Shown one piece after another: positions 9,016-24,301 of a stretch of DNA of 64,000 bases. The notes under the pieces are model-generated. The model made no database searches. It worked only from the letters and a program-made list of their open reading frames with translations, and was not told where the DNA came from. Position numbers and translations under genes: made by a program. Source of the stretch: Deltaproteobacteria bacterium. Its GTDB lineage: Bacteria; Desulfobacterota; WTBG01; CAIYCZ01; CAIRTM01. How positions within the stretch are numbered: the stretch's first letter is position 1; every line of letters starts with the position of its first letter. The stretch is from contig VGSH01000001.1 in the NCBI GenBank assembly GCA_016875025.1, positions 30,174 to 94,173 of the forward strand. The letters run 5' to 3'.

Positions 9016-9762
9016 GTGTCTGTGCCTGACCAGTTGCAACCTGAACCCAACTATGCGCGCATGCGGATCGGCAGGATGCTGTTGCGCGCAGCCGAAGGCG
9101 TTCCACAAGGCTGGCTGTGTGATATCGTGCGGCAGGCTGCACAGGACTCATCCCGCAGTGTGCGCCGCGCGCCTGCGCCTCCCGGCTGGCACGGCGAGGT
9201 GATGATCAAACGCTACCGGCTGAGGCAAAACCACGGTATTATCCGCCGCCTTAAGCCCGGCCGTTCGGCGCTTGAAGGCAGCGGATATTTGGCTTTCAGG
9301 CGCTGTGGCCTTGCAACCCCTGCGCTGCTTGCCTGGGGCGAATCACGCCGGTTTCTGCTGTTTGATTTCGGCATCATTGTGACGCAGTATGTTGATGCCC
9401 CCTCGGTAGCGCACGTATATGCACAGACCCACGACGACGCTCTGCTGGCTGACACAGCCCGTGAACTCGCACGGATCCACCGCGCAGGCCTTACCCATGG
9501 AGACCCTTTTGTCAGGAATTTTCTGGCTACCCGGCCCCGGCCCGTGGCCATCGACATCGCATCGTGGAGCCGATTCCGCAGGGCATCCCAGCTTAAGGAC
9601 CTGACCCGCTTTGGCGCTTCGGTCTTCAAACTCACCGCTGATCCAAAACGTGTAAAGGCAGTGCTTGTGTGCTATGCGCAGGACGCGCCCGCGCTGCCTG
9701 ACGCAATCGACAGGCTTGTTGCCCGGGCCGAAGCATACGCACAGTCGAAGAAACGAGCGTAA
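9016..9762 (+). CDS. lipopolysaccharide kinase family protein (Kdo kinase/WaaP/InaA-like)
   Basis: LTHGDPFVRNFL catalytic-loop-like motif and overall protein-kinase-like fold size. GTG start. Confidence 0.6.
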   Translation: MSVPDQLQPEPNYARMRIGRMLLRAAEGVPQGWLCDIVRQAAQDSSRSVRRAPAPPGWHGEVMIKRYRLRQNHGIIRRLKPGRSALEGSGYLAFRRCGLATPALLAWGESRRFLLFDFGIIVTQYVDAPSVAHVYAQTHDDALLADTARELARIHRAGLTHGDPFVRNFLATRPRPVAIDIASWSRFRRASQLKDLTRFGASVFKLTADPKRVKAVLVCYAQDAPALPDAIDRLVARAEAYAQSKKRA

Positions 9763-9920
9763 CGTGTATGCATTCATCAACCCGGACAGCATCAACATTC
9801 GCATGTTTCAAAAATAGTTGCTTCAGTGCCTGCAAATTTTATAATTCAACCTGTCGGAGAATCTTGAACCCGCCAATCTGTCTCATTGCAGGATGAACGC
9901 CTGATTTTTCAGGATTCTGT

Positions 9921-10771
9921 ATGCCGTTACAAATGAGCATTGCCAGCACCGCCATCATCGACCGGCCGGTTTTCATCGTCGGCCCGCATAGAAGCGGTAC
10001 AACGCTGCTCTACGGCATTCTTGACCGGCACCCTGATGTGGGCTGCATGGTGCGCTGCAATCACCGGTTTCCTGCGCATCCGCTTCTTGCATCCATTGCG
10101 CGCACGCTTCTGCGCGGCACAACAAAGCCTCACGAGGCGCAGCGCTTCTGGGACTATCTGTGGCCGGGGCCGGACGATACAATGACCGCGGATGATCTTA
10201 CCGCGGAACAGGCGACGTTCTATGCGTCGACTGTGGAGCGTGTTCTCAGGCTGCGGGGGCGTACGCGCTTTGTGGCTAAATATCCACGGCTGTCGCTGCG
10301 CATCGGCTGGCTTAACGCACTGTTCCCGGACGCGAAATTTCTGCATATGGCTCGTGACTGAGCGCAGTGGTCAACTCGACCGTGCAGCGCAAGGTCAAGC
10401 GGCACAAACGCGGCGGCGGCTGGTTCGGGGTGCGCATACCGGGCTGGCGGGATATGACGGACCTGCCGCATGAGCTTTCAGCCGGACGTCAGTTCCGTGC
10501 AGCGACACTGGCCATCGAGGAACAGGCGCGGTGTCTAACAGGACGATTCCACCGGGTAGACTATGCCCGATTGTGCACCGATCCCGAGGGGGTCATGCGC
10601 GGTGTTGCCGGCTTTTGCGAGCTGCCGTTCAGCCCGGATTTTCAGGCTTCTCTGCCCCGAGATTTAAAGAGCAGGAACGACAAGTGGCAGAAACATCTGA
10701 CGGCAGAGATGATCGAGATGATTCGTGCCGAAGACCCTGACTTTTACACGCGCTACGAAGACGCAGTGTAA
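9921..10771 (+). pseudogene. sulfotransferase-family gene disrupted by a frameshift near 10359
   Basis: The N-terminal ORF (9921-10361) has a PAPS-binding-like VGPHRSGTT loop and ends at ...KFLHMARD followed by a stop. The C-terminal remainder continues in another frame from 10367. Confidence 0.55.
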
Positions 10772-10834: not shown

Positions 10835-12439
10835 GTGAATTCATGCGCGACCAAACCGGCCCGTTTCCTCCTGCTGCTGGCAGCCATATTCATTGTGCGG
10901 GGCATCGCGCTGCAGGGCCTGTATCCGCCGCTTGAGGGTTTTGACGAATACCAGCATATCGCCTGCATGCAGTATCTCGTCGAGAACCGCACTCTGCCGG
11001 TGTACGGCCGATCTCAGGTACCCGTTTCGCTCTACGGCGACATTGTCGCAAACCCGCATCCTGATTTCAGCCATCAGCAGACAGATCGAATCGGCGCGCT
11101 GTCCTACGCTCAGTTTTATACCGGCAGCCCTGTGCTGCCGGGGCTGGCCCCGATAGATCTGTATCAGGCACAGCATCCTCCGCTTTATTATGCCGCCATG
11201 GCTTCGCTGTACGTCTTTTCGCGTGCCGTGCTCGGCTTTCGCGCGGCGGTATATCTGCTGAGATGTGTCAACATCTGCGCTGCCGCTCTTGCCCTTGTGC
11301 TTCTGCTGTACCCCGTCAGGCGTATGTGTGCTGACAGCGCTCTCAGCAGACTGATGTGCCTTGCTGCGGCTTCATCGCCCCTGTTTATGGTGTATGTCGC
11401 GCGCGTGGCCAACGATGCGTTCGCGCTTATGTTCGCGGGATTTTCACTTGTATTGGTGCTGCGCGCTTCCGATGAAAGGCGGCCGCTCCTGTCTGCCGGA
11501 CTTGCCGGAGTGTGCGCCGGCCTGGCTGTACTGTCAAAGCTGAACGCTCTGGTGGTACTTCCCGCTGCGCTTTGCTACTGGGTTATACTTGCGGCCGTTT
11601 CAAACATTGCATGGCGTCGCTGTGTGCAGTTCTCCGTTTTTTTTACTGCCGGGTATCTGTTTATCTGCCTTCCGTTCCATGTGTGGGCGCAGGTGCAGTA
11701 TTCAACCTTTTTTCCGCAGCAGGAGACGCTCAGGTACATTGCTGCCGGACGGACCTCGATTGACTGGCTGCGCGAGTTTCGCTTCGGACATCTCTGGTCT
11801 TTCTTTGTCCGGCATGTTGTTTCACAAACGCTGTGGACAAGCGGCTGGTCGTTTCTTGCATTGCCGCGGCTGCCTGCATTGGCCTACAGGCTCTTGCTGG
11901 TTGCCGCCGCCTGCGGTGCTTTGTTCTGGTTGCGCGGCCGCAGGCGCACAGCATATGGCGAACTCATTCGTGATCTGCGCCCGCTGCTTCTCTGTCTGTT
12001 GCTGACGCTTGGTACCTTGTGCGCAGCCTACATGCATGCGCTGCACAGCCTGGCTGCATACGGTCTCATAAATACTCCGCCGCATTATGTAATGATCGCC
12101 TATCCGGCATTTCTCGGCTGCCTGTTTGCAGCTGCGCTGGGCTTCGGACGCAGGATTGCCGCAATCACTGCGATTGTAATGATAGCTCTTTTTACTTTTG
12201 CCGAACTTTATGGACTGCTGTTTGTGGCCGTTCCGTATTGGGCCCAGACCCTTGATTTTTCGTTGATGATGACGCGCCTTGCCTCTGTACACCCGGGTTT
12301 CCCCGCGCCCATTCATTTTTTTATTCTGTACCCGGCAGCTTTTGTGCTCCTGATAATTGCACTGCGCCCGTCACTGCGTATTTTTAGAACACAGGCCCGG
12401 CAGATACCTGAACAGCATGCAAGGCCGCCCGTTTGCTGA
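10835..12439 (+). CDS. GT-C fold membrane glycosyltransferase (ArnT/PMT, GT39/GT83-like)
   Basis: 534 aa, about 12 TM segments, with an N-terminal periplasmic-loop FDEYQH acidic motif as in the ArnT/PMT family. Confidence 0.6.
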   Translation: MNSCATKPARFLLLLAAIFIVRGIALQGLYPPLEGFDEYQHIACMQYLVENRTLPVYGRSQVPVSLYGDIVANPHPDFSHQQTDRIGALSYAQFYTGSPVLPGLAPIDLYQAQHPPLYYAAMASLYVFSRAVLGFRAAVYLLRCVNICAAALALVLLLYPVRRMCADSALSRLMCLAAASSPLFMVYVARVANDAFALMFAGFSLVLVLRASDERRPLLSAGLAGVCAGLAVLSKLNALVVLPAALCYWVILAAVSNIAWRRCVQFSVFFTAGYLFICLPFHVWAQVQYSTFFPQQETLRYIAAGRTSIDWLREFRFGHLWSFFVRHVVSQTLWTSGWSFLALPRLPALAYRLLLVAAACGALFWLRGRRRTAYGELIRDLRPLLLCLLLTLGTLCAAYMHALHSLAAYGLINTPPHYVMIAYPAFLGCLFAAALGFGRRIAAITAIVMIALFTFAELYGLLFVAVPYWAQTLDFSLMMTRLASVHPGFPAPIHFFILYPAAFVLLIIALRPSLRIFRTQARQIPEQHARPPVC

Positions 12440-12502
12440 TTTTTTGCATGCCGCAGAACCGGATGCTCATATAGCGTCGGCCTGCGGATGAGGAGACCTG
12501 AC

Positions 12503-13297
12503 ATGATTATCGATGTCCATAATCATTTAAGTCCGCCGGCGTCTGCGTACCGCATGGAGGCTGACAGCTATCTCGAAACCATGGATGCCTGCGGTGTTGA
12601 CAGGCTTGTCATTCTTGGCAAGGATTACGGCCCGGCCGGTGACCGGCGCAATGACAACCTTGCTGACGAAGATACGGTCGCTTTTGTAAAAGCCCATCCG
12701 GACCGTTTTATCGGCTTTACCGCGGTTCATCCCGACCGGGGAATAGCGGCCAATCTTGACCGCATCGACCGTGCCGTGCATGAATTCGGCCTGCGAGGCG
12801 TCAAGCTCAATCCTGCGTCGGGGTTCTATCCCAATGACGAGCGCCTATACCCTGTCTATGAAATGATCTCACAGCTCGGCATACCGGTGGTGATACATAT
12901 GGGTATTAAACCGCCATCAGAGGAAAGCAGGCTAAAGTATTGTCATCCCATCTATATTGATGACATAGCAGTTGATTTCCCGGGCCTGCGTCTCGTGATT
13001 GCGCATGCGGCCTATCCCTGGGTTGAGGACCTGATCATGGCTGCACTGTATGCGCCGAATGTGTCGGTTGACATCTCGACTCTGAACCAGATCGAGGATG
13101 CTCTGGGCTATCCCGTGATACTGCCGACCCTTGAAAAACTGGTGCGCGCGCTGGGCGCGGGCCGCGTACTGTTCGGCTCCGACGGCATATTCAATCTGGA
13201 GCCCCTGATCAGCGCTGTGCGCAGCGCTGCATTTCTCACCGACAGCGACCGGGAGTTGATTTTTTATAAGAATGCGCTCAAGTTACTCAGCCTGTAG
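12503..13297 (+). CDS. amidohydrolase-2 family metal-dependent hydrolase (TIM barrel)
   Basis: MIIDVHNHL start motif preceded by a GAGGAG RBS. Matches the amidohydro_2 family. Confidence 0.8.
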   Translation: MIIDVHNHLSPPASAYRMEADSYLETMDACGVDRLVILGKDYGPAGDRRNDNLADEDTVAFVKAHPDRFIGFTAVHPDRGIAANLDRIDRAVHEFGLRGVKLNPASGFYPNDERLYPVYEMISQLGIPVVIHMGIKPPSEESRLKYCHPIYIDDIAVDFPGLRLVIAHAAYPWVEDLIMAALYAPNVSVDISTLNQIEDALGYPVILPTLEKLVRALGAGRVLFGSDGIFNLEPLISAVRSAAFLTDSDRELIFYKNALKLLSL

Positions 13298-13319
13298 CGT
13301 AACACTGGTCAGGGGCAAT

Positions 13320-13352
13320 CTTGACATGCCCTGTATTTCACATTAGTATATA
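13320..13352 (+). promoter_or_regulatory. candidate sigma70-type promoter for the downstream plus-strand cluster
   Basis: TTGACA, then a 17-nt spacer, then TAGTAT/TATAAT in an AT-rich island just upstream of the 13385 ORF. Confidence 0.35.
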
Positions 13353-13384
13353 ATAAACAAAAATGCTTCAGCAGGAATGCAGTC

Positions 13385-13852
13385 GTGCGTGACATAGCGA
13401 AAAAAAAATATGTTTTCAGTACAGCACTGATACTGACTTTGCTGTACGTAGTGACGCTGCTGCCGCTCAGCGGCTTTTCCTGCGCCTGCGATGCGGCTGA
13501 AACACAACAGAACGCTGAAGAGTTTTCGCTTGCGCAGTGCTGCTGTTCGGCCGGTGCCTGCACTGAAAAGGCGCCTGCCAAGCCTGTGCGCCCGGTTCGT
13601 GCCGGCGATCCGTTATGCGCTACCCACGAGATGTGCTGCTGTTCTTCCGCGAACGCTGATGAAATGGATGTTCAGGCCGCGGTTGTTAAAGACGAACGCC
13701 GCAGCCCTTTGAAAGACGGGCGCTGTGTGATTCTGTTGCCCACGGCTTTCATGCCTCAGTTGGAAGACGTCCCGTCCTCACCAGCAGTGAGGAACAGTGA
13801 ATGCCGATCCCCGCTTTCCCCCCATATTGCAACTACCATCCTTTTGCTGTGA
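13385..13852 (+). CDS. Cys-rich small exported/membrane-anchored protein (CxC, CCC, CCC clusters), unknown function
   Basis: GTG start with an AGGAA RBS. N-terminal K-rich plus hydrophobic signal/anchor. Motifs SCACD, CCCSAGAC and CATHEMCCCSS. Confidence 0.4.
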   Translation: MRDIAKKKYVFSTALILTLLYVVTLLPLSGFSCACDAAETQQNAEEFSLAQCCCSAGACTEKAPAKPVRPVRAGDPLCATHEMCCCSSANADEMDVQAAVVKDERRSPLKDGRCVILLPTAFMPQLEDVPSSPAVRNSECRSPLSPHIATTILLL

Positions 13853-14025
13853 GATTTTTGCAGCACCTGCACTGCCCCTGATTGTTGAGCCCAATTACCC
13901 TGCACCAGTTTGTTTGTGTGCGGTTGTAATGTAACGGGGCCTGGGCTGTTAAGGTTCTCCGGTGTTTGTTGTTACTCTGTCATGACCATCATGATCCTAT
14001 AGTTTTGGTATGAAAGGAATTATAT

Positions 14026-14406
14026 ATGCTGAAAAATACTCTTCGTACTGTATGTGTGATGTGTGCTGTGGCGCTGTTTATCGGATGTTCATCGCCTGAG
14101 GCGCAGAGCGGTCTGCGCCTGGGCGAGGATATCCCTGGGGGTGCTCCGGTTGTTAAACTGGCGGAGGTTCTCGCAAATCCGTCCGCGTTTAATGATGCAC
14201 GGGTTGTTTTAAAAGGTGTGGTGGCCAGCCAGTGCTCATCGCTGTGCCATTTCAACTTTCAGGACGGGGTCAACAGCGTAACCGTGTATCCGCAGGGTTT
14301 CAAGCTCCCGCGGCTGGGCCGCGGCAAAAATGTAACCCTGTATGCGCAGATATTCAGCGGTGAGGGTGGGGTTGCCTTTTCGGTGCTCGGCCTGAGCATG
14401 GAATAG
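14026..14406 (+). CDS. small lipoprotein, unknown function
   Basis: Lipobox LFIGCSS with a GAAAGGAA RBS. 126 aa. Immediately upstream of the ABC permease. Confidence 0.6.
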   Translation: MLKNTLRTVCVMCAVALFIGCSSPEAQSGLRLGEDIPGGAPVVKLAEVLANPSAFNDARVVLKGVVASQCSSLCHFNFQDGVNSVTVYPQGFKLPRLGRGKNVTLYAQIFSGEGGVAFSVLGLSME

Positions 14407-14415
14407 GGGGCTGAC

Positions 14416-15591
14416 ATGACATTTTTCAAAGTAGCGCTCAGTAATTTGAAACGCAACCGTGTCAGAACCCTGTTGACCGGCCTCAGCCTTGCGGTATCGG
14501 CAGCCACCCTGACCGTGGTGCTTGCGCTTGACCGCGGGTATTCATCAGCCGTAACCGATGATCTGGTTAATAAAACAGGCATACATCTGTATATCACCAA
14601 GGAAGGCTGCCCGATCGAGGCCGCCTCTGTTATCGCGCAGGGAGGCCTGAGCCCCCTGTATGTTGAAGAGGATATTCTCGCCCGGCTTGCGACTGTTGCC
14701 GATTTGGAGGCGATTCTGCCGTTCAAGCTGTTCGCCGTCACTACTGATGACGGCTCGCGAACCGATATTTTTATGGGTGTCACGGATGCGATTCTGTCCA
14801 TGAAGCCTGACTGGCGTTTTGCGGCCGGAGGCTGGCTCAAAGAGGATGACAGTGTTGTTATCGGAGCCGATATGGCCCAGATTGAATTCCTGCAGGTTGG
14901 CCAGCGCATGTATAATGAAAATTTTGACCGCGAGTTCACGGTAACCGGTATTCTGGAGCGCACCTACAGTCAGGATGACGGCACCTTTTTCGTGCCGCTG
15001 GCAACCGCGCAGGCCATGGTGCAGCGCGAGGGCAAGCTGTCGGCTGTCGGTTTGAAGCTGGCTGATATCAGCCGCATGGACCTGGTGCAGAATCAGCTGC
15101 GTGCTTTGATGCCGGCCGATTATTTTGTGCTGGGGTCAAAGGAACTCAGCGAGGGCATCCTGCAGTTTTTCGGAGCGACCCGGGCCATCATGATCGTGAT
15201 GGTGTTCGTGGCCTTCATCATCTCGGTGTTCGGCATTATCAATACCATGCTCATGGCCGTGCTGGAGCGCCGCCGCGAAATCGCCTATCTTAAATGCGTC
15301 GGCGCGGGCCGCCTTGACCTTGTGCGCCTAATCACGCTGGAGACGACTTCGATCGCTCTTGCCGGAAGCGCAGCCGGTGCGCTGCTGGGCATGGTGCTCA
15401 GTCCGGTTGCAGGCAATCTGCTGCGTACCTTTCTGGTTGCCTATGTGCCTTCGGGCCCCATCGCGCGTCCTGAACCGATGATTGCGCTGATGGCATTTAT
15501 ACTGTGCTCGATCGTCGGGCTTGCCTGTTCCCTGTATCCGGCACTGCGCGCGGCCCGGATTGTTCCCATGGAGGTGCTGAGAAATGACTGA
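14416..15591 (+). CDS. ABC transporter permease, FtsX/MacB/LolC family
   Basis: 391 aa with an N-terminal TM, a large periplasmic domain and three C-terminal TMs. Typical of FtsX-domain permeases. Confidence 0.85.
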   Translation: MTFFKVALSNLKRNRVRTLLTGLSLAVSAATLTVVLALDRGYSSAVTDDLVNKTGIHLYITKEGCPIEAASVIAQGGLSPLYVEEDILARLATVADLEAILPFKLFAVTTDDGSRTDIFMGVTDAILSMKPDWRFAAGGWLKEDDSVVIGADMAQIEFLQVGQRMYNENFDREFTVTGILERTYSQDDGTFFVPLATAQAMVQREGKLSAVGLKLADISRMDLVQNQLRALMPADYFVLGSKELSEGILQFFGATRAIMIVMVFVAFIISVFGIINTMLMAVLERRREIAYLKCVGAGRLDLVRLITLETTSIALAGSAAGALLGMVLSPVAGNLLRTFLVAYVPSGPIARPEPMIALMAFILCSIVGLACSLYPALRAARIVPMEVLRND

Positions 15592-16249
15592 GCATATTAT
15601 AGAACTTCACGATGTATCCAAAAACTACACCCGCGGTGTTGAAACCGTGCATGCCCTGCAGGAAGTGACCCTGAACGTTTCCAAAGGTGATTTTATCGCT
15701 GTGGTCGGCCATTCGGGCTCCGGTAAAACGACGATGATGAATATCATGGGCTGCCTCGACCACCCGAGCAGCGGCAGTGTTATTCTGCAGGGCCGTCCGA
15801 TTGAGCAGGCGAGCGAGTCCGCACTGACCCGTATGCGCCGCAGTGCGATCGGGTTTGTGTTCCAGCAGTTTTTTCTGGTGCCGACGCTGACGGTTCTTGA
15901 AAACGTAACGCTTCCGGCACTGTTCAGCGGCAATCATACCAACGGCCGCTCCCGGGATTTACTGGAAATGGTCGGACTGGGAAAGCGGCTCAACCATCTG
16001 CCGGGCCAGCTCTCAGGCGGTGAAATGCAGCGCGCGGCCATTGCGCGCGCGCTGGTCAATTCACCGCCGCTGGTGCTCGCCGATGAACCGACCGGCAATC
16101 TTGATTCCCGCAACGCCGACATGATCATGGAGCTGTTTGAGCAGCTCAACCGCGACGGTGTCACCATCGTTCTGGTTACGCATAACGCTGATATCGTCAA
16201 ACACTGTGAAAGGACGGTGCACATTGAAGACGGCCGCATATCGCAGTAA
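15584..16249 (+). CDS. ABC transporter ATP-binding protein (MacB/LolD-like)
   Basis: Walker A GHSGSGKTT, signature LSGGEMQR and Walker B LVLADEPT. 8-nt overlap with the permease gene. Confidence 0.9.
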   Translation: MTEHIIELHDVSKNYTRGVETVHALQEVTLNVSKGDFIAVVGHSGSGKTTMMNIMGCLDHPSSGSVILQGRPIEQASESALTRMRRSAIGFVFQQFFLVPTLTVLENVTLPALFSGNHTNGRSRDLLEMVGLGKRLNHLPGQLSGGEMQRAAIARALVNSPPLVLADEPTGNLDSRNADMIMELFEQLNRDGVTIVLVTHNADIVKHCERTVHIEDGRISQ

Positions 16250-16298
16250 CAGGCGCGCGGAGGAATCGTCGATATGCCGTCTGCCGGATCAGGGAACA

Positions 16299-17327
16299 GT
16301 GCTGCGACCGGGCAGGAAGCGGGGGCGCCTTCTGTATGCGATCGTAGTTGCGATCGCGCTGATGTGCGCAACCGGCCCGGCCGCTGAGTGCCGGGCTTCA
16401 TGGAACCTGTCGCTTGATGCAGACGCGCGCGGCAGGGTTGCCTCCGGCAGCGAGCCTGACGCAACCCTGAACCTGTTCGGTGCGTCATTGCGCAAGACAT
16501 TTGCCGATGCCAAAGGCGACCGGCTTGTTCTTTTCGCGCTGTTTGAAAGCGAAGAGGGGTTTGATGAGTCCCGCGATGAGAGCCTGCATGAAATCTACGC
16601 CCAGTACAAGGGTCCGATGGGAGCATGGAATATCACCCTTGGCCGTTTCGGATTGCCGTGGGGCCTGCTGCCGAATTTTTCCGCGAGCAGGCTGCTCTAT
16701 GACATGCCGCATGACCGGGTGCTGGGCATGGATGTTGACAGCGGTATCAAGCTGTCCGGCGTGCAGGGCATATTTGATTACGGTCTGTCCTATACCCGCG
16801 GCTACGGCCCGCGCAACACGGTCGATGCGGGCTCGCACGGTATTGCCACGGGCCGCATCGGGATTACCCCGGGCGAAACCGAGGAATTATCTTTGGGTCT
16901 CTCGGGAGCCTTGGGCCGCTCAATCAACGCGCACGGCGCAGATCACGATGAGCCGGACCACGGCGACCCGGACCACCGCAGGCGCGATGATGACCGGGCC
17001 CTGCAGCGCGCAGTTGTCGGGCTTGACAGCACGCTCTATCTCGGCCGCTGGCTGATACGCAGCGAGGTATCAGGCGGGCAGGTTGATAAACGCGGTATGC
17101 GTGCATTTTTTGCCGGGGCTGATTATGCCCTGCGCTCAAACCTTGACCTGAATCTTGCGGTAAATCTCAGCCGTGTTGATTCGGAAACTATGAATGAGTG
17201 GTTTGCAGGACTTACCTGCAGGCTGCCCTGGTTTATCCTGAGAGGAGAATATCGGTATGTCGGATACGGTGATGCGCGCAATCAGATTACCATTCAGCTC
17301 TATCGTTTTTTTTCTTATACTTGGTAG
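16299..17327 (+). CDS. putative outer-membrane beta-barrel protein with a His/Asp-rich segment
   Basis: GTG start giving a signal peptide MLRPGRKRGRLLYAIVVAIALMCATGPAAEC. C-terminal aromatic terminus ...YRFFSYTW. HGADHDEPDHGDPDHRRRDDD stretch. Confidence 0.45.
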   Translation: MLRPGRKRGRLLYAIVVAIALMCATGPAAECRASWNLSLDADARGRVASGSEPDATLNLFGASLRKTFADAKGDRLVLFALFESEEGFDESRDESLHEIYAQYKGPMGAWNITLGRFGLPWGLLPNFSASRLLYDMPHDRVLGMDVDSGIKLSGVQGIFDYGLSYTRGYGPRNTVDAGSHGIATGRIGITPGETEELSLGLSGALGRSINAHGADHDEPDHGDPDHRRRDDDRALQRAVVGLDSTLYLGRWLIRSEVSGGQVDKRGMRAFFAGADYALRSNLDLNLAVNLSRVDSETMNEWFAGLTCRLPWFILRGEYRYVGYGDARNQITIQLYRFFSYTW

Positions 17328-17847
17328 CGCTCTGCCGGCTGCGGCACAGGAGGCGTATTTGTGCGTGTGGCGCAACCCTGAGCGGACCATGACACGGATT
17401 TTTCCGGATGCCCGTGACTATAAATCCGTTACAGCGCGGATATCGGCCGAGCAGCGGGCCGTGATCGAAAAAACGCTCGGCTACGAGCTGCTGCCCGGCC
17501 AGCAGGACCAGTTTCAGTATTATCATATGCTGGATGCCGGCGGCAGCGCTATCGGCACGATTATTCCGTCGACTCAGAAAGGCGAGTTCGGCGCCGTGGA
17601 ATTCGTGTTCGGGCTCGGACCTGATACGACGATCAAAGGCCTTTATATTCAGCGAGCGCGCGAGCGCGACCAGGCCTTTAAAGACAGGGCGTTTCTGGAA
17701 CAGTTCATCGGCCGTTCAGCCGCTGACCGGCAGGCCATTCAACAGGTTGACGGCGGCGGCACAACGCCCGGCAAGCAGGCTGTGATCCGCGGGCTGGTCA
17801 AGGAGCTGACTACCATGGACACGGTTGCCGCCGCTGTTGGTCAGTAG
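17257..17847 (+). CDS. exported FMN_bind-domain protein
   Basis: GAGAGGAGAA RBS and a signal peptide. GAVEFVFGLGPDTTIKGLYI and F-LEQFIGRS...VDGGGTTPGKQAV resemble the RnfG/NosR-type FMN-binding domain. Confidence 0.55.
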   Translation: MSDTVMRAIRLPFSSIVFFLILGSALPAAAQEAYLCVWRNPERTMTRIFPDARDYKSVTARISAEQRAVIEKTLGYELLPGQQDQFQYYHMLDAGGSAIGTIIPSTQKGEFGAVEFVFGLGPDTTIKGLYIQRARERDQAFKDRAFLEQFIGRSAADRQAIQQVDGGGTTPGKQAVIRGLVKELTTMDTVAAAVGQ

Positions 17848-17929
17848 GTTTGTAAAGTGACAATCATCATCCGTCGGATCAGTTCTATCGGACCGATCCG
17901 ACGGATCGTACACCACGAAAGGACACAGC

Positions 17930-19330
17930 ATGAATTTTGCAAAAACAGTGCTTTGTGCTGCGGCGCTTGTTGCTCTGGGACTGGCTCTCGGCGCCTGTTC
18001 GCCTCCGCAGGACCGGACCAACTATTACGCCTATCTTGAACAGGATACGGCTGTTAAGGGCAGAACCGGTGTTTTGCTGACTGCGCTGGGCCAGCCGGAA
18101 GAGTATGAATTTTCTTTTTATAACAAATATCTGAATCATATTTTCGAGGCGGCCTTTCCACCGCTGCTGAAGTTGATTGTCATGCGGGATCGCGGCACCG
18201 TGCTGCTTGACCCGGCAAACCCCACGGCCGTCGAGCAGTTTACGCCCTCAGAACTGATGGACTGCTTCGGCAGTACGGTTAATGAGCAGGGTATACCGTA
18301 CACACAGCTTCCGGTGCAATGGGTAAAGCCGCGCACTAGTGACAGCCATGCCTACGGGCATTTTCTGCTCAAGGGGAAAAACGGTTTCGTTGATATCGCG
18401 GAGCGCTCTTCCGTCAAGATTGCGGCATCCTACTACGGTCGCATGCCCGGCAATATAATCCCCTTCAAGCAGCAGCATCGCGCACTTTTCAGTGATATTG
18501 AAAGCCTGCTGGCTGAGCAGTTTCCCGGTACGCCGATGAAAACAGCCTGGTCGATGTACCCTGATACCATTGCGCAGGCCATTGAAGAGCTGCTCAGCGA
18601 AAAGGTCGAAACCATCGTTGTGTGCAATCTGTTCCCGGTGTATTCAAACCTTGAGGAGTTCAACTCTCTGTTCGTTGAAATCGGGCAGATGGTTGCCGGC
18701 AGGGCCAAAATTGTGTTTAGTCCTTTTGCAGGGGTGTATGAATCGTATCGCGCGCCTTTTGTCGCCATGGCCCGGGCTGAAATCGAGCAGCTGCCGGCTG
18801 CATCAAAAAAGCTGCTGGTGCTCACCCGTCACGGTTTTCCGGAGATGAAGGGCGAGCCCTGGCATGATCTCGCGCCGGTTTTCTACGACAACCTGCTGCG
18901 GGAAGTCGAGCAGGCTCTCTCAGGCTCCAATACCCAGGTGGTTATCGCGGATACGGAATTCGCCTGCTCCGAGCATGATCCCAAAAACCTGCGCCTGTCG
19001 GCTGCCGAAGCCCTGGCGCAGGGCCTCGATCAGGGCAGCGATGCCGTCGTGTTCGTGCTTGTCGATTTTATGAGCGAAAATACGGACACGATTTTCTGCG
19101 CGCGCGAAGAGGCCCTTGAGACGATCGGCTTTACCTATGCCGGTACGGTTCCCTACAGCGATTTTTCCGTTCCCTTCAGAACGGATATGCGCTACGGCGC
19201 TACCCGGATTATCTTATCCGGCGCGCCCGTGGGCGATATGTATCGGCCTATGCTTGCCCGGGGGATTTTTGATGCGCTTTCAACCGTGCTGCGCGCTGAG
19301 GCATGGCCCGCTTTAACAGTTGGGAGTTAG
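17930..19330 (+). CDS. ferrochelatase-fold (class II chelatase-like) lipoprotein
   Basis: Lipobox LALGAC with an AAAGGA RBS. Motifs GVLLTALGQPE, IVVCNLFPVYSN and LVLTRHGFPE parallel the ferrochelatase GILLANLGTPD, VVLPLYPQFS and LLLSYHGIP. Confidence 0.55.
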   Translation: MNFAKTVLCAAALVALGLALGACSPPQDRTNYYAYLEQDTAVKGRTGVLLTALGQPEEYEFSFYNKYLNHIFEAAFPPLLKLIVMRDRGTVLLDPANPTAVEQFTPSELMDCFGSTVNEQGIPYTQLPVQWVKPRTSDSHAYGHFLLKGKNGFVDIAERSSVKIAASYYGRMPGNIIPFKQQHRALFSDIESLLAEQFPGTPMKTAWSMYPDTIAQAIEELLSEKVETIVVCNLFPVYSNLEEFNSLFVEIGQMVAGRAKIVFSPFAGVYESYRAPFVAMARAEIEQLPAASKKLLVLTRHGFPEMKGEPWHDLAPVFYDNLLREVEQALSGSNTQVVIADTEFACSEHDPKNLRLSAAEALAQGLDQGSDAVVFVLVDFMSENTDTIFCAREEALETIGFTYAGTVPYSDFSVPFRTDMRYGATRIILSGAPVGDMYRPMLARGIFDALSTVLRAEAWPALTVGS

Positions 19331-19651
19331 GAGTTGGGAGAAGACAGGTTCATGGTTCAAGAATTTGCGTGGGCAGATCCCTGCGCCTGCCCCCGCAGGG
19401 GCGACCGGCCGGTCGCCCTTACACAGAGGGTCGATTCAGGGCCGTCATCTTTTTGCTCCTGCGATTTCGCCTGGAAAGTATATCCGTCTGATCGGTCGGA
19501 TTTGCCCGAACAGACCGCTTGTTTTCTTTTGCCTTGACAAGCACCTGTCCAGTAAGAATAATCATAGGTAACCGCGCAGCCGAGTTGATGTGTTGATTAA
19601 ATCACCCGTTTACAGCTGTGCTTTTCATTGTCCGGACTTGGATGGTATCCT

Positions 19652-19858
19652 ATGGCGTGCGTTAAAAAAAATCCCTGTCCTGACTGCACATTTTGCCAAT
19701 GGTGTTCCGACACCCGGTGTGCGGTGTGTATGGGTACATGTGAACGATGTCCGAAAAAAACACTGCAGGAGCAGATCGATGAATATGAACGCAACAACCC
19801 CGGCAGGCCGCAGGCGGATCAGCCGATCTTGTACAAAAAAACTCCAGTCGGCAGTTAA
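19652..19858 (+). CDS. possible Cys-rich small peptide (8 Cys in 25 aa); overlaps the next gene in another frame
   Basis: MACVKKNPCPDCTFCQWCSDTRCAVCMGTCERCP... Mixed GC3 composition. Overlaps the 19779 start region of the next gene, so either call may be wrong. Confidence 0.2.
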   Translation: MACVKKNPCPDCTFCQWCSDTRCAVCMGTCERCPKKTLQEQIDEYERNNPGRPQADQPILYKKTPVGS

Positions 19859-20984
19859 AACGGCGGCGTGTGCTCTGGTCGTGCTGCTGCTTGTGCGCGC
19901 ATCCGTGTGCCGGGCAGCCGCTGATGCCGATCTTTCCAAACTGCAGCCTGGCATGGCACTGCCGGCAATCCGCATTGTGCAGGACCTGACTCCTGAACAG
20001 CGCAGCTATCTTGGCCTGCCCGGCCGTCTGATCGGAATGTTCACGGGTAAGGGTTTCAAGCCTTCCGACGTTGCGGCCGATGTGCTGGTGATTGAATTTT
20101 TCAATGTGTACTGCACCTCCTGCCAGAGTCAGGCATCGATTCTGAACGAAGTGTTTCAGCGGGTCAACTCCCGTGACGACATGCGCGACCGGGTTAAATT
20201 TTTCGGCATCGGCGCGGGTAACAATCAGCAGGAAGCCGCCATGTTCATGCGGCGCTATTCGGTCGGTTTTCCGATGTTTCCTGATCCCGACTTTGTGAAC
20301 TACGAGGCTGTCGGCGAGCCGGGCGCAACTCCCCTTACAATTATTGCCCGGAAACACGGCAAAGAGCTTCTGGTTGTCAGCGCCCATGCCGGCCTTGTTA
20401 AAAATGCGGATGTTTTTATGACGGCCATACGCACTGCGCTGGCCAGCTCTCCTGATGGGCTTGCCGCTGAATCTGCGCAGAAGGAGCCGGCACAGGCCGT
20501 GAAACGGCCGCGCATTGAGCTGAATATGAGCGATGACCAGATTGAACAGGCTGTTCTCACCAGCATGCGCCGTGCTGCGGGCGGAGATGACTCCATTACA
20601 TCCGTGCGAACGGTGAGTTATCCGCGCAGCGGTGATATTTTTGTCGCCACGCCCGCAGGTGCTGTTTCAAATCTGTACGCGCAGGTTGTCAGCCGACCGC
20701 CCACATGTGATGTATGCCACGGTGTGCATTTTATTCTGGTGTTCGACGGAGCCGGCATTCTGCGCTATTTCGAGCCTCTGCACCTGACCAAGTACGGCAA
20801 TGTCGTGTGGACTCAATACGATGCCGATTTCATGCGGCGGCATTTGATCGGTCTTGATGTGCGGCAGCCCTTTGAATATAATCCGTCGGTTGATTCAGTG
20901 ACCACTGCCACCATGACATCCGTGATTATTTATAACAGCGCGCAGCGCCTGCGTGATGTACTCAAGGAAATTAAGTCGCAATAG
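19779..20984 (+). CDS. exported thioredoxin-like (CxxC) plus C-terminal FMN_bind domain fusion protein
   Basis: Signal peptide with a long basic n-region. VLVIEFFNVYCTSCQ redoxin motif. C-terminal VDSVTTATMTSVII matches the FMN_bind flavinylation motif (VDxxSGATxTS). CxxCH present (CDVCHG). Confidence 0.55.
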   Translation: MNMNATTPAGRRRISRSCTKKLQSAVKTAACALVVLLLVRASVCRAAADADLSKLQPGMALPAIRIVQDLTPEQRSYLGLPGRLIGMFTGKGFKPSDVAADVLVIEFFNVYCTSCQSQASILNEVFQRVNSRDDMRDRVKFFGIGAGNNQQEAAMFMRRYSVGFPMFPDPDFVNYEAVGEPGATPLTIIARKHGKELLVVSAHAGLVKNADVFMTAIRTALASSPDGLAAESAQKEPAQAVKRPRIELNMSDDQIEQAVLTSMRRAAGGDDSITSVRTVSYPRSGDIFVATPAGAVSNLYAQVVSRPPTCDVCHGVHFILVFDGAGILRYFEPLHLTKYGNVVWTQYDADFMRRHLIGLDVRQPFEYNPSVDSVTTATMTSVIIYNSAQRLRDVLKEIKSQ

Positions 20985-21042
20985 ACTGCCCGGAGAACCG
21001 TGTGTCCTGATACAGGAATGGCAGCGAAAAAGGAGATTGACC

Positions 21043-21324
21043 ATGTCTGATGAAAACAATTCGTATGTTCCGTTACCGAAAAATACCCCGGCATTCATCT
21101 GCGCCGGCTGCGGAGCCGTTGCCCTTGACCGTGAAAGCATCTGTACACCGCAGGGCCGGGGCACCAGGGCTGACTGGTGCTGTTCTGAGTCCGGTGCCGC
21201 TCCTTCATATTGTCGTAATGCGGTACACACCGAGCGCTATCAGTGCAAAAACTGCGGTCAGGTGGCGGTTAATTCCGGCCTGCTGTGCGACCCGCAAAAA
21301 ATGCTCCGGCCTGAAGAAAAGTAG
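21043..21324 (+). CDS. small zinc-ribbon / rubredoxin-like protein
   Basis: Strong AAGGAG RBS. Two CxxC pairs (CAGCG...CTPQ and CKNCG...CDPQ). Confidence 0.55.
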   Translation: MSDENNSYVPLPKNTPAFICAGCGAVALDRESICTPQGRGTRADWCCSESGAAPSYCRNAVHTERYQCKNCGQVAVNSGLLCDPQKMLRPEEK

Positions 21325-21375
21325 CTGCCGCATTTTCCGGATTATGCAGCACGAAATCGATCATGTGTCGATTGA

Positions 21376-22215
21376 TTACCTGCGAAGGGCTTTCACACTG
21401 AAACCGGCAAGATAGATACAGCCCGTCACCATGACAATGGTAGCGCCCCCGGGCAGGTCGAGGCTGTAGCTCAGGCACAGGCCCGCAGCGATACACAGCA
21501 TGCTTATGACTGCGGCAGCGATCATCATCTGCCACAGCCTGCCGCAGAACTGACCGGCTATCGCAGCCGGCAGGCTCAGCAGGGCGACCACCATGATAAT
21601 TCCTACAATCCGTATCAGCAGCACGATCGTCAGCGCGGTCAGGCCCAGCAGCAGCAGGTACAGCATGCGGGTGTTGAGACCGCGCAGCCGCGCAAATTCC
21701 TCATCAAAGCACACCGCCTGCAGACGGTTATAGAAAAGCATGCTGATGACGATGATGACCGTGTCAAGGATGAGAATAATCCATACATCAGCCGATGAAA
21801 TCATCAGGATATTGCCGAACAGGTAGCTCATGGGATCTGTGTACCCCGGTGTTTTGGCGATCAGCAGGATGCCGGCTGCCATGCCCAGCACCCACAGTGC
21901 GCTGATAACCGTATCTTCGCGCTCACGGGCATACATGCTTACCACGCCGATTATCAGCGCCGCAGACAGGGCCGCGAACAGCGCTCCCAGAATCGGATCG
22001 GCCCAGGTCAGGCCGTACACCTGCTGGAGGTACAGTGCCGCGCCGATACCGCCCAGCACGCAGTGGGCGATAGAGCCGGCCAGATAGCTGATGCGCTTGA
22101 CCACCACGAACGAGCCGATGATGCCGAAGGCAATGCCGGCCAGCAGCCCGGCAGCCATGGCGTACCGCAGAAAAGCGATATCAGGATCGCGCAGGGCCTG
22201 GATAAATTCAATCAT
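21376..22215 (-). CDS. znuB: ABC-3 family metal (zinc/manganese) transporter permease
   Basis: 279-aa polytopic protein typical of ZnuB/MntB/TroCD. Overlaps the ATPase gene. Confidence 0.8.
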   Translation of the reverse strand: MIEFIQALRDPDIAFLRYAMAAGLLAGIAFGIIGSFVVVKRISYLAGSIAHCVLGGIGAALYLQQVYGLTWADPILGALFAALSAALIIGVVSMYAREREDTVISALWVLGMAAGILLIAKTPGYTDPMSYLFGNILMISSADVWIILILDTVIIVISMLFYNRLQAVCFDEEFARLRGLNTRMLYLLLLGLTALTIVLLIRIVGIIMVVALLSLPAAIAGQFCGRLWQMMIAAAVISMLCIAAGLCLSYSLDLPGGATIVMVTGCIYLAGFSVKALRR

Positions 22216-22966
22216 GGGTATGCCCCTGTTGTGAACACTGATGATCGTGCCGTACCATTTTCAGGTCCGAGCCGTAGATTTCCTGAATGATTTCGCCGGT
22301 GATTTCGCTGGTCGGGTGAAGCTTGACGGTGCGGTTCACGCACAGCACGCGATCCACCATGCGGGAGACAAAGCCGAGCTCATGGGTTACCGTGATAACG
22401 GTCAGGCGGTGTGCAAGGCGCGCAAGGGTGTCATTGACCTGCTGCTCCATGGCGGGATCGACATGCGCGGTCGGCTCATCCAGCAGCAGCAGTTCGGGTT
22501 CGCAGGCCAGGGCGCGGGCGATCAGCACACGCTGGCGCTGCCCGCCGGAAAGCGACGCAAACGGGCGCGCAGCCAGATCGACAAGGCCGGTTTGAGCAAG
22601 TGCCTGAAGGGCGGCTGCTTTGTCGGACCGTGAATAAAAAGAGCCCGGCCGTCTTCCCAGGCGGCCCATGAGCACAATATTGAGAACGCTGATGGGAAAA
22701 CTCGGATCAAAGTGCGTACTCTGGGGCATATAGCCGATACGGCGGCTGTTTGCATGCGGCATCCCGCCAAGAACCCTGATGCTGCCTGAGGCGGGGTGAT
22801 GAAGACCCAGTATGAGCTTGATGAGGGTTGTCTTGCCGCCGCCGTTGGGCCCTACAATGCAGACCGATTCGTGCTCGAAAAGGTTAAAGCTCACATTGTG
22901 GAGAATTTCCGTCTGGTCGTAGGCAAAGCAGACATTGTTGAAGCTGATTACGGGTTGCGGCATCAT
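22208..22966 (-). CDS. znuC: metal ABC transporter ATP-binding protein
   Basis: GPNGGGKTT Walker A, LSGGQRQR signature and LLLLDEPT Walker B. Confidence 0.85.
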   Translation of the reverse strand: MMPQPVISFNNVCFAYDQTEILHNVSFNLFEHESVCIVGPNGGGKTTLIKLILGLHHPASGSIRVLGGMPHANSRRIGYMPQSTHFDPSFPISVLNIVLMGRLGRRPGSFYSRSDKAAALQALAQTGLVDLAARPFASLSGGQRQRVLIARALACEPELLLLDEPTAHVDPAMEQQVNDTLARLAHRLTVITVTHELGFVSRMVDRVLCVNRTVKLHPTSEITGEIIQEIYGSDLKMVRHDHQCSQQGHTHD

Positions 22967-23967
22967 GGTGTATGCCCGTGGCCGGCTTTGGTATGCGCCG
23001 GGTCGTTTGGAATTGTTTGATCGAAGGCGCCCGCGATTGCATTGGCCATGGTCTGCAGGTTCCGAATAACATCTTTGGCAAGCGGATCAAGCGGCACTAC
23101 AGTCCCATTTATCTGGGCGGCAATGGTCTGCGCGGTTTTGGTATCAAATTGCGGCTGCACAAAGATGGTGCGCACGCCCGATGAGCGGGCCTGTTTGATC
23201 AGTGCGGAAATGTGCCGGGCAGTCGGCTGGCGACCGTTGATTTCAACCGTCTGCTGGTTCAAAGTGTAGGTGTGGGCAAAATAGCCGAATGCAGGATGAT
23301 ACACAAAAAAAGTCCTGTTCCGATGCGGTTGCAGAAGTCTGAGATTTCCAGCATGTGCGGCCTCAAGTGCGGCCAGCAGCCGGGTGGTGTTTTGGGCATA
23401 GGCCGCTGCATTGTCGGGATCAGCTTCAGTGATGACACGCTGCGCGAGTTCGATGAACTGGCGCAGTTGACGGGTTCCGAGCCAGAAGTGCGGGTCATGT
23501 CCGGTGTGGTCATGATCAGCGCCGTGATCACCGGAACAGACCTGTTCGTGGTCGGCACTCAGGAGGTCAATGTGCTTTCCCGTGTCAATGATGCGGATTT
23601 TTGTATGCTGAGCCCTGATCTTGTCCACCAGAATACGTTCAAAGGGCAGTCCGGCCATCAGGTACAGCTGAGCATTGGACAGCCTGTGCAGCAGGCGCGG
23701 TCCCGGTTCAAACATGTGCGGGTCCTGACCCTCCGGAAGGAGTGTGTCGACCGTAACCAGCGTGCCGCCGATCTGTTCAATGCAGTAAGCCAGCGGCGCG
23801 ATAGCGGTACAGATGCGCAGGGGGGTAGCTTCAGGCCGGGCAGGGTTGCCGGCGGTCGGGTACAGCAGCGCAATCAGGCACAGGTGTAAAATCAGTGCCG
23901 TGCTCTGACACCGGCTCCGCATCCGTAAACAGGCGCGTGATGCCATTCTGGAAAATTCCGCGTGCAT
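22963..23967 (-). CDS. znuA: metal ABC transporter periplasmic substrate-binding protein (ZnuA/TroA family) with a His-rich loop
   Basis: Cluster-9 SBP fold signatures plus a His-rich loop DHGADHDHTGHDPH characteristic of zinc-specific ZnuA. Confidence 0.75.
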   Translation of the reverse strand: MHAEFSRMASRACLRMRSRCQSTALILHLCLIALLYPTAGNPARPEATPLRICTAIAPLAYCIEQIGGTLVTVDTLLPEGQDPHMFEPGPRLLHRLSNAQLYLMAGLPFERILVDKIRAQHTKIRIIDTGKHIDLLSADHEQVCSGDHGADHDHTGHDPHFWLGTRQLRQFIELAQRVITEADPDNAAAYAQNTTRLLAALEAAHAGNLRLLQPHRNRTFFVYHPAFGYFAHTYTLNQQTVEINGRQPTARHISALIKQARSSGVRTIFVQPQFDTKTAQTIAAQINGTVVPLDPLAKDVIRNLQTMANAIAGAFDQTIPNDPAHTKAGHGHTP

Positions 23968-24301
23968 GCTCTCTCAGTGTGCTGGTGCCATGGTGAAAAA
24001 GTGAACGATAACCCTGACATGCCTGTCTGGTGTGGCTGCAAAATTTCAGCCGCTTACCAGAGCACGTTATAACAATTCATGGGTGTAATCGCAAGACTGA
24101 AAAAAGCCATGTTCTGGTTTGGAAGGTCTGGCTTTTTAAATGTATTCTGAGGGCGGATAATATCTTTTGTTTTCCGCCGCGCAAAGGAGTAGTATGGTGA
24201 CACATGCAGACGTCCTTCCGCATGACCCGCGCCGGGATTTTTCCGCTGTGTTCTCTCATACACAGGCTTTTTTAACAATGCCCATTTCAGCAGGAGCTTT
24301 T

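Follow-up and report, generated by a model that had tools for sequence, protein, structure and literature searches.

What is the role of a small, cysteine-rich protein that is encoded at the head of a set of MacB-type ATP-binding cassette (ABC) transporter genes? The question is raised by a 155-amino acid (aa) open reading frame (ORF) at positions 13385–13852 (+) of a 64,000-nucleotide stretch of contig VGSH01000001.1 from a Deltaproteobacteria bacterium (assembly GCA_016875025.1, positions 30,174 to 94,173), which we call the window. The ORF, referred to below as the Cys ORF, starts with GTG and ends with TGA. It was originally predicted to encode a secreted Cys-cluster protein resembling either metal-thiolate proteins or the precursors of ribosomally synthesized and post-translationally modified peptides (RiPPs). 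Its conservation in relatives indicates that the ORF is a genuine gene, and its product founds a previously undescribed protein family that belongs to an equally unannotated transporter module. We favor, tentatively and with somewhat less than even confidence, a function as a periplasmic accessory or sensor protein that would bind a metal or metalloid through thiolates and that is encoded by the first cistron of this module.

The ORF is judged to be real because it is conserved in relatives, not because it is rich in Cys. The window is G+C-rich, and about 40 ORFs of 50 aa or more, most of them spurious, likewise have a Cys content of at least 7.5% and a CC or CxC motif, so that the Cys density of the ORF product (12 of 155 residues or 7.7%, about 18% within residues 33–86) is by itself not beyond chance. 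Seven close homologues with identities of 57–99% keep the reading frame, all indels among them being in-frame, and retain C35, C53, C54, C59, C78, C84–86 and the last 15 residues. In a codon-level alignment of the close relatives, synonymous variation is found at invariant residues. The coding potential is further borne out by codon periodicity: the mean pairwise differences at codon positions 1, 2 and 3 are 0.235, 0.192 and 0.304, respectively (position 3 > position 1 > position 2). The ratio of nonsynonymous to synonymous substitution rates (dN/dS) is 0.37–0.67 compared to 0.06–0.18 for the adjacent lipoprotein and permease genes at similar dS, by which measure the overall constraint on the Cys ORF is weak. 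Judging from these alignments, the ORF is a genuine protein-coding gene in which strong constraint is limited to a few segments.

The gene is equipped with its own start signals. A σ70-like promoter (TTGACA-17-TAGTAT, 13321–13349 (+)) that matches 10 of the 12 consensus positions is located upstream, and its −35 region CAATCTTGACAT is conserved in the relatives L001 and L006. The Shine-Dalgarno (SD) element AGGA (13373–13376 (+)) lies 8 nucleotides (nt) before the GTG codon, with AGCAGGAATGCA invariant in five relatives, and L001 and L002 have ATG in place of this GTG. A search of the promoter region for an operator palindrome found none, and the only similarity that this region shares with the znu promoter region is −35-like. 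Both CCC triplets of the protein are encoded within one 12-nt direct repeat, GTGCTGCTGTTC, the copies of which span 13537–13548 and 13633–13644. An overlapping ORF at 13797–13934 was rejected because it is not conserved and carries a 1-nt indel in L001.

The peptide strings MRDIAKKKYVFSTALILTLLYVVTLLPLSG, SCACD, CCCSAGAC and CATHEMCCCSS are present in the product exactly as first described, and its Cys residues occupy positions 33, 35, 52–54, 59, 78, 84–86, 114 and 140. Residues 1 to ~34 (13385–13486 (+)) constitute a Sec-type signal peptide that comprises a basic n-region, an h-region, a Pro at the h/c boundary and small residues ahead of CxC. As this layout recurs in all 30 family members (30/30), with the first Cys placed 3–8 residues past the h-region, the earlier assignment of the ORF to an exported Cys-cluster protein is upheld; the signal peptide is probably removed by a cut immediately ahead of the first CxC. 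A lipoprotein reading of the Cys protein was rejected, since the lipobox [LVI][ASTVI][GAS]C is found in only 2 of the 30 members, the window protein not being one of them.

In a motif alignment, the Cys-cluster region that comes next (residues 33–86, 13481–13642 (+)) is composed of CxC, CCCx4C, C and CCC. It is followed by a poorly conserved linker (13643–13804 (+)), the nearly fixed length of which emerges from spacings across lineages and which has a predicted local distance difference test (pLDDT) score below 50 in an AlphaFold2 (AF2) model, and by the C-terminal motif RSPLSPHIATTILLL with the TGA stop codon (13805–13852 (+)), delineated in the family alignment. Family-wide, the Sec signal gives way at once to CxC, which is often His-flanked, then to CC(C)x2–4C and to CC(C) or CxC. 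Besides L153, C35, C54, C84 and C86 alone are invariant or nearly so across phyla. The C-terminal consensus P-H-[IL]-x-[ST]-T-[IV]-L-[LRK]-[ILV] stands directly before the stop codon in all lineages. The distance from the last Cys cluster to the C terminus is 63–70 residues (mostly 66–69) in every lineage, whereas the total length of the proteins varies from 114 to 176 aa and the span of the Cys clusters from 14 to 63 aa. The invariant C-terminal motif, this 63–70-residue spacing and the nucleotide signals around the stop codon described below were not part of the original prediction and are the most distinctive features of the family. Because the CC and CCC motifs are vicinal and the Cys counts of the mature proteins are variable (6–13) and odd as often as even, the pattern argues for free thiolates rather than a fixed disulfide framework.

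Pfam, NCBIfam and PDB-sequence searches with the window protein and with an 18-member alignment gave no match to the Cys protein. Eighteen diverse members also remained without a Pfam or NCBIfam match even at E ≤ 1, and thus without a match to any metallothionein family model. AF2 modeling from a 12-sequence alignment resulted in a pLDDT of 40.8, with only an N-terminal helix and a short C-terminal helix predicted. Comparison of the close-family alignment with GTDB species genomes yielded no further loci. The wider family was reached by using the neighboring permease as the query, which gave 26 loci with permeases 54–77% identical; in 20 of these, a distant Cys-protein relative is encoded directly upstream of the lipoprotein gene. 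Further members came from protein databases and metagenomes, in which a word-indexed search recovered close relatives only, an exhaustive profile search gave 8 representatives and a metagenome scan contributed only 2 extra loci. About 30 relatives from at least five phyla were tabulated, their hosts being Desulfobacteraceae, Fibrobacterota/Chitinivibrionales, Spirochaetota and Victivallales metagenome-assembled genomes (MAGs) together with unclassified MAGs and metagenome contigs. The hosts that carry the Cys ORF are all anaerobes, several of them from sulfidic settings. The conservation of the Cys pattern in relatives thus extends from the close homologues to distant members across phyla. No second copy of the C-terminal motif was found within the window.

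The genes that follow the Cys ORF form a unit with it. In tblastn searches with the window proteins, the order Cys ORF, lipoprotein, MacB/FtsX permease, ABC ATPase, putative outer-membrane protein (OMP) and RnfG-like protein is conserved in all these phyla, and every locus found via the Cys protein carries the module wherever the contig is long enough. The co-conservation of exporter genes is accordingly strict. Since the genes flanking it are unrelated from locus to locus, we conclude from gene order that this is a self-contained, mobile six-gene module. Database copies of its proteins are named ‘hypothetical’, and searches of the literature for combinations of MacB, metal and Cys-rich proteins yielded no account of it.

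The original prediction had placed the Cys ORF directly upstream of a lipoprotein and a MacB-family exporter, and both neighbors were confirmed. The 126-aa lipoprotein (14026–14406 (+); lipobox GC) is encoded after a gap of 173 nt, in which we found no promoter-like or terminator-like site, and is preceded by the SD sequence GAAAGGAA (14012–14019 (+)). It carries an invariant C70-x3-C74 motif and is modeled as an OB fold (AF2 pLDDT 87); the Foldseek matches of the model are OB folds, including YgiW (BOF) and CcmE, and some of its relatives have been named ‘YdeI (BOF family)’ by JGI. The permease (14416–15591 (+)) is of the MacB/FtsX type (type VII ABC), with matches to Pfam FtsX (PF02687, 59.5 bits) and MacB_PCD (PF12704, 56.3 bits) that are both above the cut-off. 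The solved structures closest to it are LolF, YtrF, MacB and LolE, and H57 and C65 are invariant in its periplasmic domain. The ABC ATPase (15584–16249 (+)) is LolD/MacB-like. The putative OMP (16137–17327 (+)), translation of which probably begins past position 16249, accompanies the module in every phylum. It measures ~330–400 aa, carries a signal peptide and an aromatic C-terminal residue, and matches nothing in Pfam or the PDB; its assignment to the outer membrane is putative. The last gene of the module (17257–17847 (+)) encodes a periplasmic RnfG/FMN_bind-like protein of ~190 aa, for which the NCBIfam RnfG match is weak (E = 7.7e-4, below the cut-off). Its invariant Cys, located in VYLCVWRNPERTM, is C36 at the start of the mature chain. 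The module proteins in the periplasm thus each have an invariant Cys. No membrane-fusion protein (HlyD/MFP) domain or TolC-like (OEP) domain was found in any gene of the module. Two more genes accompany the module only in the close relatives of the window. They encode a 466-aa, probably periplasmic ferrochelatase-like lipoprotein (17930–19330 (+); PF00762, 4e-11) and an exported thioredoxin (Trx)-like protein with a CTSC motif (19779–20984 (+)).

The Cys ORF is absent from 5–6 otherwise complete homologous modules, and these are informative regarding the ligand. In four loci of Victivallales/Lentisphaerae (L024, L026, L029, L030), the Cys ORF is replaced by genes for an extracytoplasmic function (ECF) σ factor, a 122-aa transmembrane protein and a PF13801/LTXXQ CnrX-like protein. 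The latter, a member of the Metal_resist family, is itself Cys-rich (11–14 Cys), and its gene is in one operon with the lipoprotein gene. A homologous module is also found on a plasmid of the aerobe Massilia putida from tungsten-mine tailings (NZ_CP019036.1, 6756–11356; L040), which was the only find of a plasmid search with the RnfG-like protein. It encodes, in this order, an ArsR/SmtB regulator, an OMP homologue, the RnfG-like protein, the OB protein, the permease, the ATPase and a DsbD-N protein, with identities to the window of 35.5% for the permease and 39% for the RnfG-like protein. Transposase and recombinase genes flank this transposon-like unit, and it contains no member of the Cys-ORF family. 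No regulator gene stands beside the ORF-carrying modules at the loci checked, whereas the ORF-less modules have one. In the window, a Znu/Azt-type metal importer adjoins the cluster. Thiol oxidoreductases are appended to the module in two lineages, namely the Trx-like protein in the window and the DsbD-N protein in Massilia, which suggests that periplasmic Cys residues must stay reduced. A divergent rhodanese-domain gene (PF00581) lies beside the Cys ORF in the Fibrobacterota locus L015 (4297–4899, minus strand), and an ORF at the same place in the Fibrobacterota locus L020 (4321–5022, minus strand) resembles it by eye. Another Fibrobacterota MAG (L021) encodes a predicted permease of the ArsP_1 family (PF03773), split into two ORFs, directly behind the module (9282–10248, minus strand).

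The 3′ end of the Cys ORF displays constraints at the nucleotide level. Of 25 members, 23 terminate with TGA, against a local background of ~30–45%, and 20 use CTT as the codon of the invariant Leu (position −3), against a local background of 16–27%; by a hand estimate that counts ~12 independent lineages, each bias has p ~1e-3. At loci of Desulfobacteraceae, of Fibrobacterota and of others, the stop codon is followed after 3–10 nt by CCTTTC or CTCCTT, a motif that fits the SD type of the lipoprotein gene that lies 70–350 nt downstream (GAAAGG, GAAAGGGAT or AAGGAG). In L010, L012 and L015, the duplex of the stop region with this SD is the best of all windows (−12.5 to −17 kcal/mol, z ~−3 to −4). 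When 150 nt of the ORF were included in ensemble folds, the stop window was the preferred SD partner (P ≥ 0.5) at 7–8 of 21 loci, compared to ~1 expected by chance. Furthermore, cognate pairs of stop region and SD are more stable than non-cognate pairs (permutation p = 0.025).

In the window itself, an anti-SD-like stretch in the last codons (ATCCTTTTG, 13838–13846 (+)) can form a duplex of −7.4 kcal/mol with UGAAAGGAA of the next gene, a helix that recurs in the predicted fold of 13840–14030. Another element, CTTTCAT (13746–13752 (+)), is located further inside the ORF and is complementary to AUGAAAG of the downstream ribosome-binding region; in the predicted ensemble fold, the downstream SD pairs preferentially with a 40-nt stretch containing it (P = 0.89). 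Together with the pairing at the other loci, these predictions suggest that the ribosome-binding site downstream probably becomes accessible when the 3′ end of the ORF is translated, which would couple the two genes translationally; the ORF possibly encodes a built-in, SecM-like regulatory nascent chain. About 50 nt past the stop codon (13853–13905 (+)) are non-coding and conserved at the nucleotide level in close relatives, with indels between this stretch and the stop codon. A 191-nt segment (13840–14030) that runs from the last codons across the gap into the next gene folds no better than its shuffled versions (z = −0.19), and an Rfam search of 12400–24500 gave no match. UGA read-through or selenocysteine insertion was considered, as the in-frame continuation is Cys-rich in the window, and was rejected because the post-stop indels shift the frames of the relatives.

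Combining sequence, gene context and predicted RNA and protein structure, we infer the following role for the Cys protein. The small protein would be exported by Sec to the periplasm, where its mature form would consist of a thiolate head (CxC, CCx2–4C, CC(C)), a mostly unstructured linker of ~67 residues and a hydrophobic C-terminal peptide. The head would capture a thiophilic metal or metalloid as free thiolates, and docking to a component of the module would be the task of the C-terminal peptide. The ligand may then be passed along the invariant Cys residues of the lipoprotein, the periplasmic domain of the permease and the RnfG-like protein, so that the module, for which we presume this direction of transport, would remove or otherwise handle thiophilic metal(loid)s in the periplasm of anaerobes. 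Synthesis of the downstream proteins would be coupled to that of the Cys protein by base pairing of the 3′ end of its ORF with their ribosome-binding site. A thiophilic metal(loid) is the suggested ligand because of (i) the replacement of the ORF by genes for an ECF σ factor and a PF13801 protein, (ii) the ArsR/SmtB gene on the mine plasmid, and (iii) the Znu/Azt neighbor. The protein is more likely an accessory than the only substrate of the pump because 5–6 complete modules do without it.

The closest functional parallel is provided by SilE and PcoE, the periplasmic metal ‘sponges’ of the sil and pco silver and copper resistance systems, which are small, Sec-exported, largely disordered and dispensable for the core pump. 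A sponge of this kind is favored because the Cys protein is exported, displays thiolate clusters and has a fast-evolving, possibly disordered body. Like SilE and PcoE, it carries short repeated ligand motifs with variable spacers and is encoded together with a (here putative) metal-efflux gene set. The ligand residues of SilE and PcoE are, however, Met and His and their partner is a resistance-nodulation-division (RND) pump of the CusCFBA type, in contrast to the Cys thiolates and the MacB-type ABC module described here. There is no sequence similarity or family match between them, and the Cys protein differs further in its C-terminal peptide, its linker of fixed length and its anaerobic hosts.

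Metallothioneins share the CxC, CC and CCC motifs with the Cys protein, but they are cytosolic, lack a signal peptide and contain ~15–30% Cys. Membership of the Cys protein in a metallothionein family was rejected on the grounds of its Cys density of 7.7%, its export and the absence of a family match. The metal-thiolate part of the original prediction gains indirect support from the metal-type regulators of ORF-less modules, the invariant Cys residues and the thiol oxidoreductases, while its metallothionein part falls. In the CnrYXH system, which consists of an ECF σ factor, an anti-σ factor and CnrX (PF13801), the sensor is exported like the Cys protein, and a Cys-rich PF13801 protein takes the position of the Cys ORF in the four Victivallales modules. 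The Cys protein is not related to CnrX in sequence, has no partner σ or anti-σ factor and possesses almost no cytoplasmic part. The CCSAGAC string appears to resemble the Cys12-Cys13-x4-Cys18 site of ArsD, although the spacing from CC to C varies from 2 to 4 residues in the Cys-protein family, in contrast to the CCx4C of ArsD.

Several observations weigh against a role in metal(loid) binding as outlined above. Pfam, NCBIfam and PDB searches reveal no sequence or fold similarity to known metal-binding proteins. With an AF2 model built from 12 sequences, ‘disordered’ may equal ‘not predictable’. The ArsR-family regulator and the Trx, DsbD and rhodanese neighbors fit sulfur or persulfide chemistry equally well. 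A docking role leaves the conservation of the UGA stop codon and of the CUU Leu codon unexplained, and a floppy tether need not hold its length within 3 residues. As for the coupling step, the stop-proximal pairing of the window itself (−7.4 kcal/mol) is no better than that of controls, and strong RNA pairing is limited to 7–8 of 21 loci, the complementarity being weak or absent in about half and missing from several lineages.

The strongest competing explanation, which we nevertheless regard as unlikely, addresses the codon and spacing constraints directly. It holds that the ORF mainly encodes a regulatory nascent chain, a ‘monitoring substrate’ like SecM, MifM and VemP, that controls the synthesis of the pump without a transcription factor. 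The ribosome would pause at the HIxxTILL[IL]-UGA end with UGA in the A site, cover the anti-SD sequence and thereby free the ribosome-binding site that serves the lipoprotein and transporter genes. During the pause, the Cys cluster would be ~67 residues away from the peptidyl-transferase center and just emerged from SecYEG, and the duration of the pause would depend on its fate in the periplasm, where it may bind metal or be captured and pulled by the MacB machine. Monitoring substrates now include, besides SecM, MifM and VemP, the newer ApcA, ApdA, ApdP and uA_NSP-stop, and in some of them the A site of the stalled ribosome contains a stop codon (PMC7897499, PMC10987492); arrest peptides of the latter kind exist upstream of secA and secDF (PMC10987492).

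The Cys ORF shares with these systems its upstream position, an N-terminal export signal, a fast-evolving body and an invariant C-terminal motif, and at part of the loci the SD is predicted to pair with the end of the ORF as well. In addition, the reading would account for (i) the fixed spacing between Cys cluster and C terminus at otherwise varying lengths, (ii) the UGA and CUU preferences above background, (iii) the match of the CCUUUC and CUCCUU motifs past the stop codon to the downstream SD type, (iv) the predicted prominence of the stop window as the SD partner, and (v) the adjacency of a regulator gene only in ORF-less modules. The final residue of the motif is, however, Ile, Leu or Val, and not Pro, Gly or Arg as in known arrest or termination-stall motifs, including those in PMC10987492. 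More broadly, the motifs of monitoring substrates are rich in Pro, Gly, Arg or Trp, and none of them is known to be associated with a conserved Cys cluster at a fixed distance. Known monitoring substrates control components of the Sec and YidC pathways, whereas the Cys ORF precedes an OB lipoprotein and a MacB-type ABC transporter. Unlike in those systems, arrest is here a prediction only and the RNA pairing does not occur in all lineages, the complementarity being weak or absent in about half of the loci, the window included. An RNA helix alone could yield the codon and stop biases with no need for arrest, ordinary translational coupling could explain the pairing, and the fixed length could reflect folding of a domain on a partner.

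The favored accessory role also has to be weighed against the possibility, which we consider improbable, that the Cys protein is the cargo of the machine, pushed by the MacB-type pump and the OMP to the cell surface or into the medium to bind metals or act on other cells there. Small, Sec-exported, Cys-rich proteins are indeed moved by type VII systems, heat-stable enterotoxin II (STII) by MacAB-TolC and dispersin by Aat, and the Cys protein is small, Sec-exported and Cys-rich itself. It is strictly linked to a MacB-type pump and a putative OMP, its gene forms the first cistron and is served by a strong promoter of its own, and the conserved C-terminal peptide might act as a signal for recognition. 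The machine must, however, have another substrate in the 5–6 homologous modules that lack the Cys protein, and the invariant Cys residues in all of its periplasmic parts point to a small thiophilic ligand. The architecture also speaks against such a cargo. Like MacAB-TolC, LolCDE, Aat and HrtBA of the type VII ABC class, the module comprises a permease with FtsX and MacB_PCD domains and a LolD/MacB-like ATPase; unlike the MacAB-TolC type, it contains neither a fusion protein nor a TolC-like channel, and an OB-fold lipoprotein with a CxxxC motif, a putative OMP and an RnfG-like protein are present instead.

We give equally little credence to the idea that the Cys protein is a periplasmic sulfur or redox carrier of persulfide, polysulfide or reducing equivalents, with the module serving to handle reactive sulfur species. 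This chemistry would suit the anaerobic, in several cases sulfidic, settings of the ORF-bearing hosts, the rhodanese beside the ORF in Fibrobacterota (assigned by PF00581 in L015 and by eye in L020) and the Trx-like and DsbD-N partners, and the ArsR family includes persulfide sensors. The combination of a CnrX-like PF13801 protein with an ECF σ factor is, however, a metal-sensing arrangement, the Massilia plasmid is from mine tailings, a metal importer adjoins the cluster in the window, and the rhodanese gene is divergent and lineage-specific.

That the ORF does not function as a protein at all, its conservation reflecting DNA or RNA elements only, is very improbable. A dN/dS of up to 0.67, a weak asymmetry between codon positions and the nucleotide-level conservation at and past the stop codon are what one would expect in this case, but all relatives keep the frame and have in-frame indels only, the same peptide motifs are encoded by different codons across phyla, and invariant residues show synonymous changes. 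Least credible of all is the RiPP, chalkophore-like or bacteriocin precursor of the original prediction, whose core would be excised, modified and exported (or matched by peptide immunity): its sole support is a Cys-rich sequence beside an ABC exporter of a family that sometimes exports peptides, and we dismiss it because no radical-SAM, YcaO, LanB/C/M, MbnB/C, peptidase or other maturase gene is conserved at the loci, the flanks of which differ in every lineage, because the N terminus is a Sec signal and not a leader, and because the conserved elements, interrupted by a linker of fixed length, extend across ~120 residues and include no short core.

Three further ORFs were observed downstream of the module in the window. 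A 68-aa Cys-rich ORF (19652–19858 (+)) without a signal peptide (MACVKKNPCPDCTFCQWCSDTRCAVCMGTCERCPKK...) is 82% identical in L001 and has no Pfam match. It overlaps, in another frame, the 5′-extended part of the Trx-like ORF 19590–20984, the real start of which is probably near 19779, and a promoter-like site that matches 11 of 12 consensus positions (19534–19562) is found just upstream of it. A 93-aa zinc-ribbon-like ORF (21043–21324 (+); CAGCG...CKNCG), with 77% identity in L001 and weak Zn-ribbon and DUF7479 matches, is located between the Trx-like gene and a convergent znu/azt-like operon. Finally, a 453-aa ORF at 24167–25528 (+) has an N-terminal RNA-binding domain of the RNA recognition motif (RRM) type (NCBIfam Rbp_regulator, 2.7e-17).

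The Cys ORF and its neighbors represent a protein family and a six-gene MacB-type module, both unannotated, that are distributed over at least five phyla, the module being found also on a plasmid from mine soil. As the Massilia putida strain with the homologous module (6NM-7) is culturable, it offers a handle on the ligand of the module. If the metal reading is true, the module would represent a Cys-based system of periplasmic metal handling in anaerobes with a pump architecture, free of a fusion protein and TolC, that is not yet described. The spacing, the C-terminal peptide, the stop and codon biases and the anti-SD complementarity together amount to a directly testable nascent-chain hypothesis. 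If the arrest reading is true, the Cys ORF would encode the first arrest-peptide sensor outside the Sec and YidC pathways that reads a periplasmic signal, and the principle of SecM, MifM and VemP would be extended to the sensing of envelope stress, with a secreted nascent chain controlling an ABC pump.

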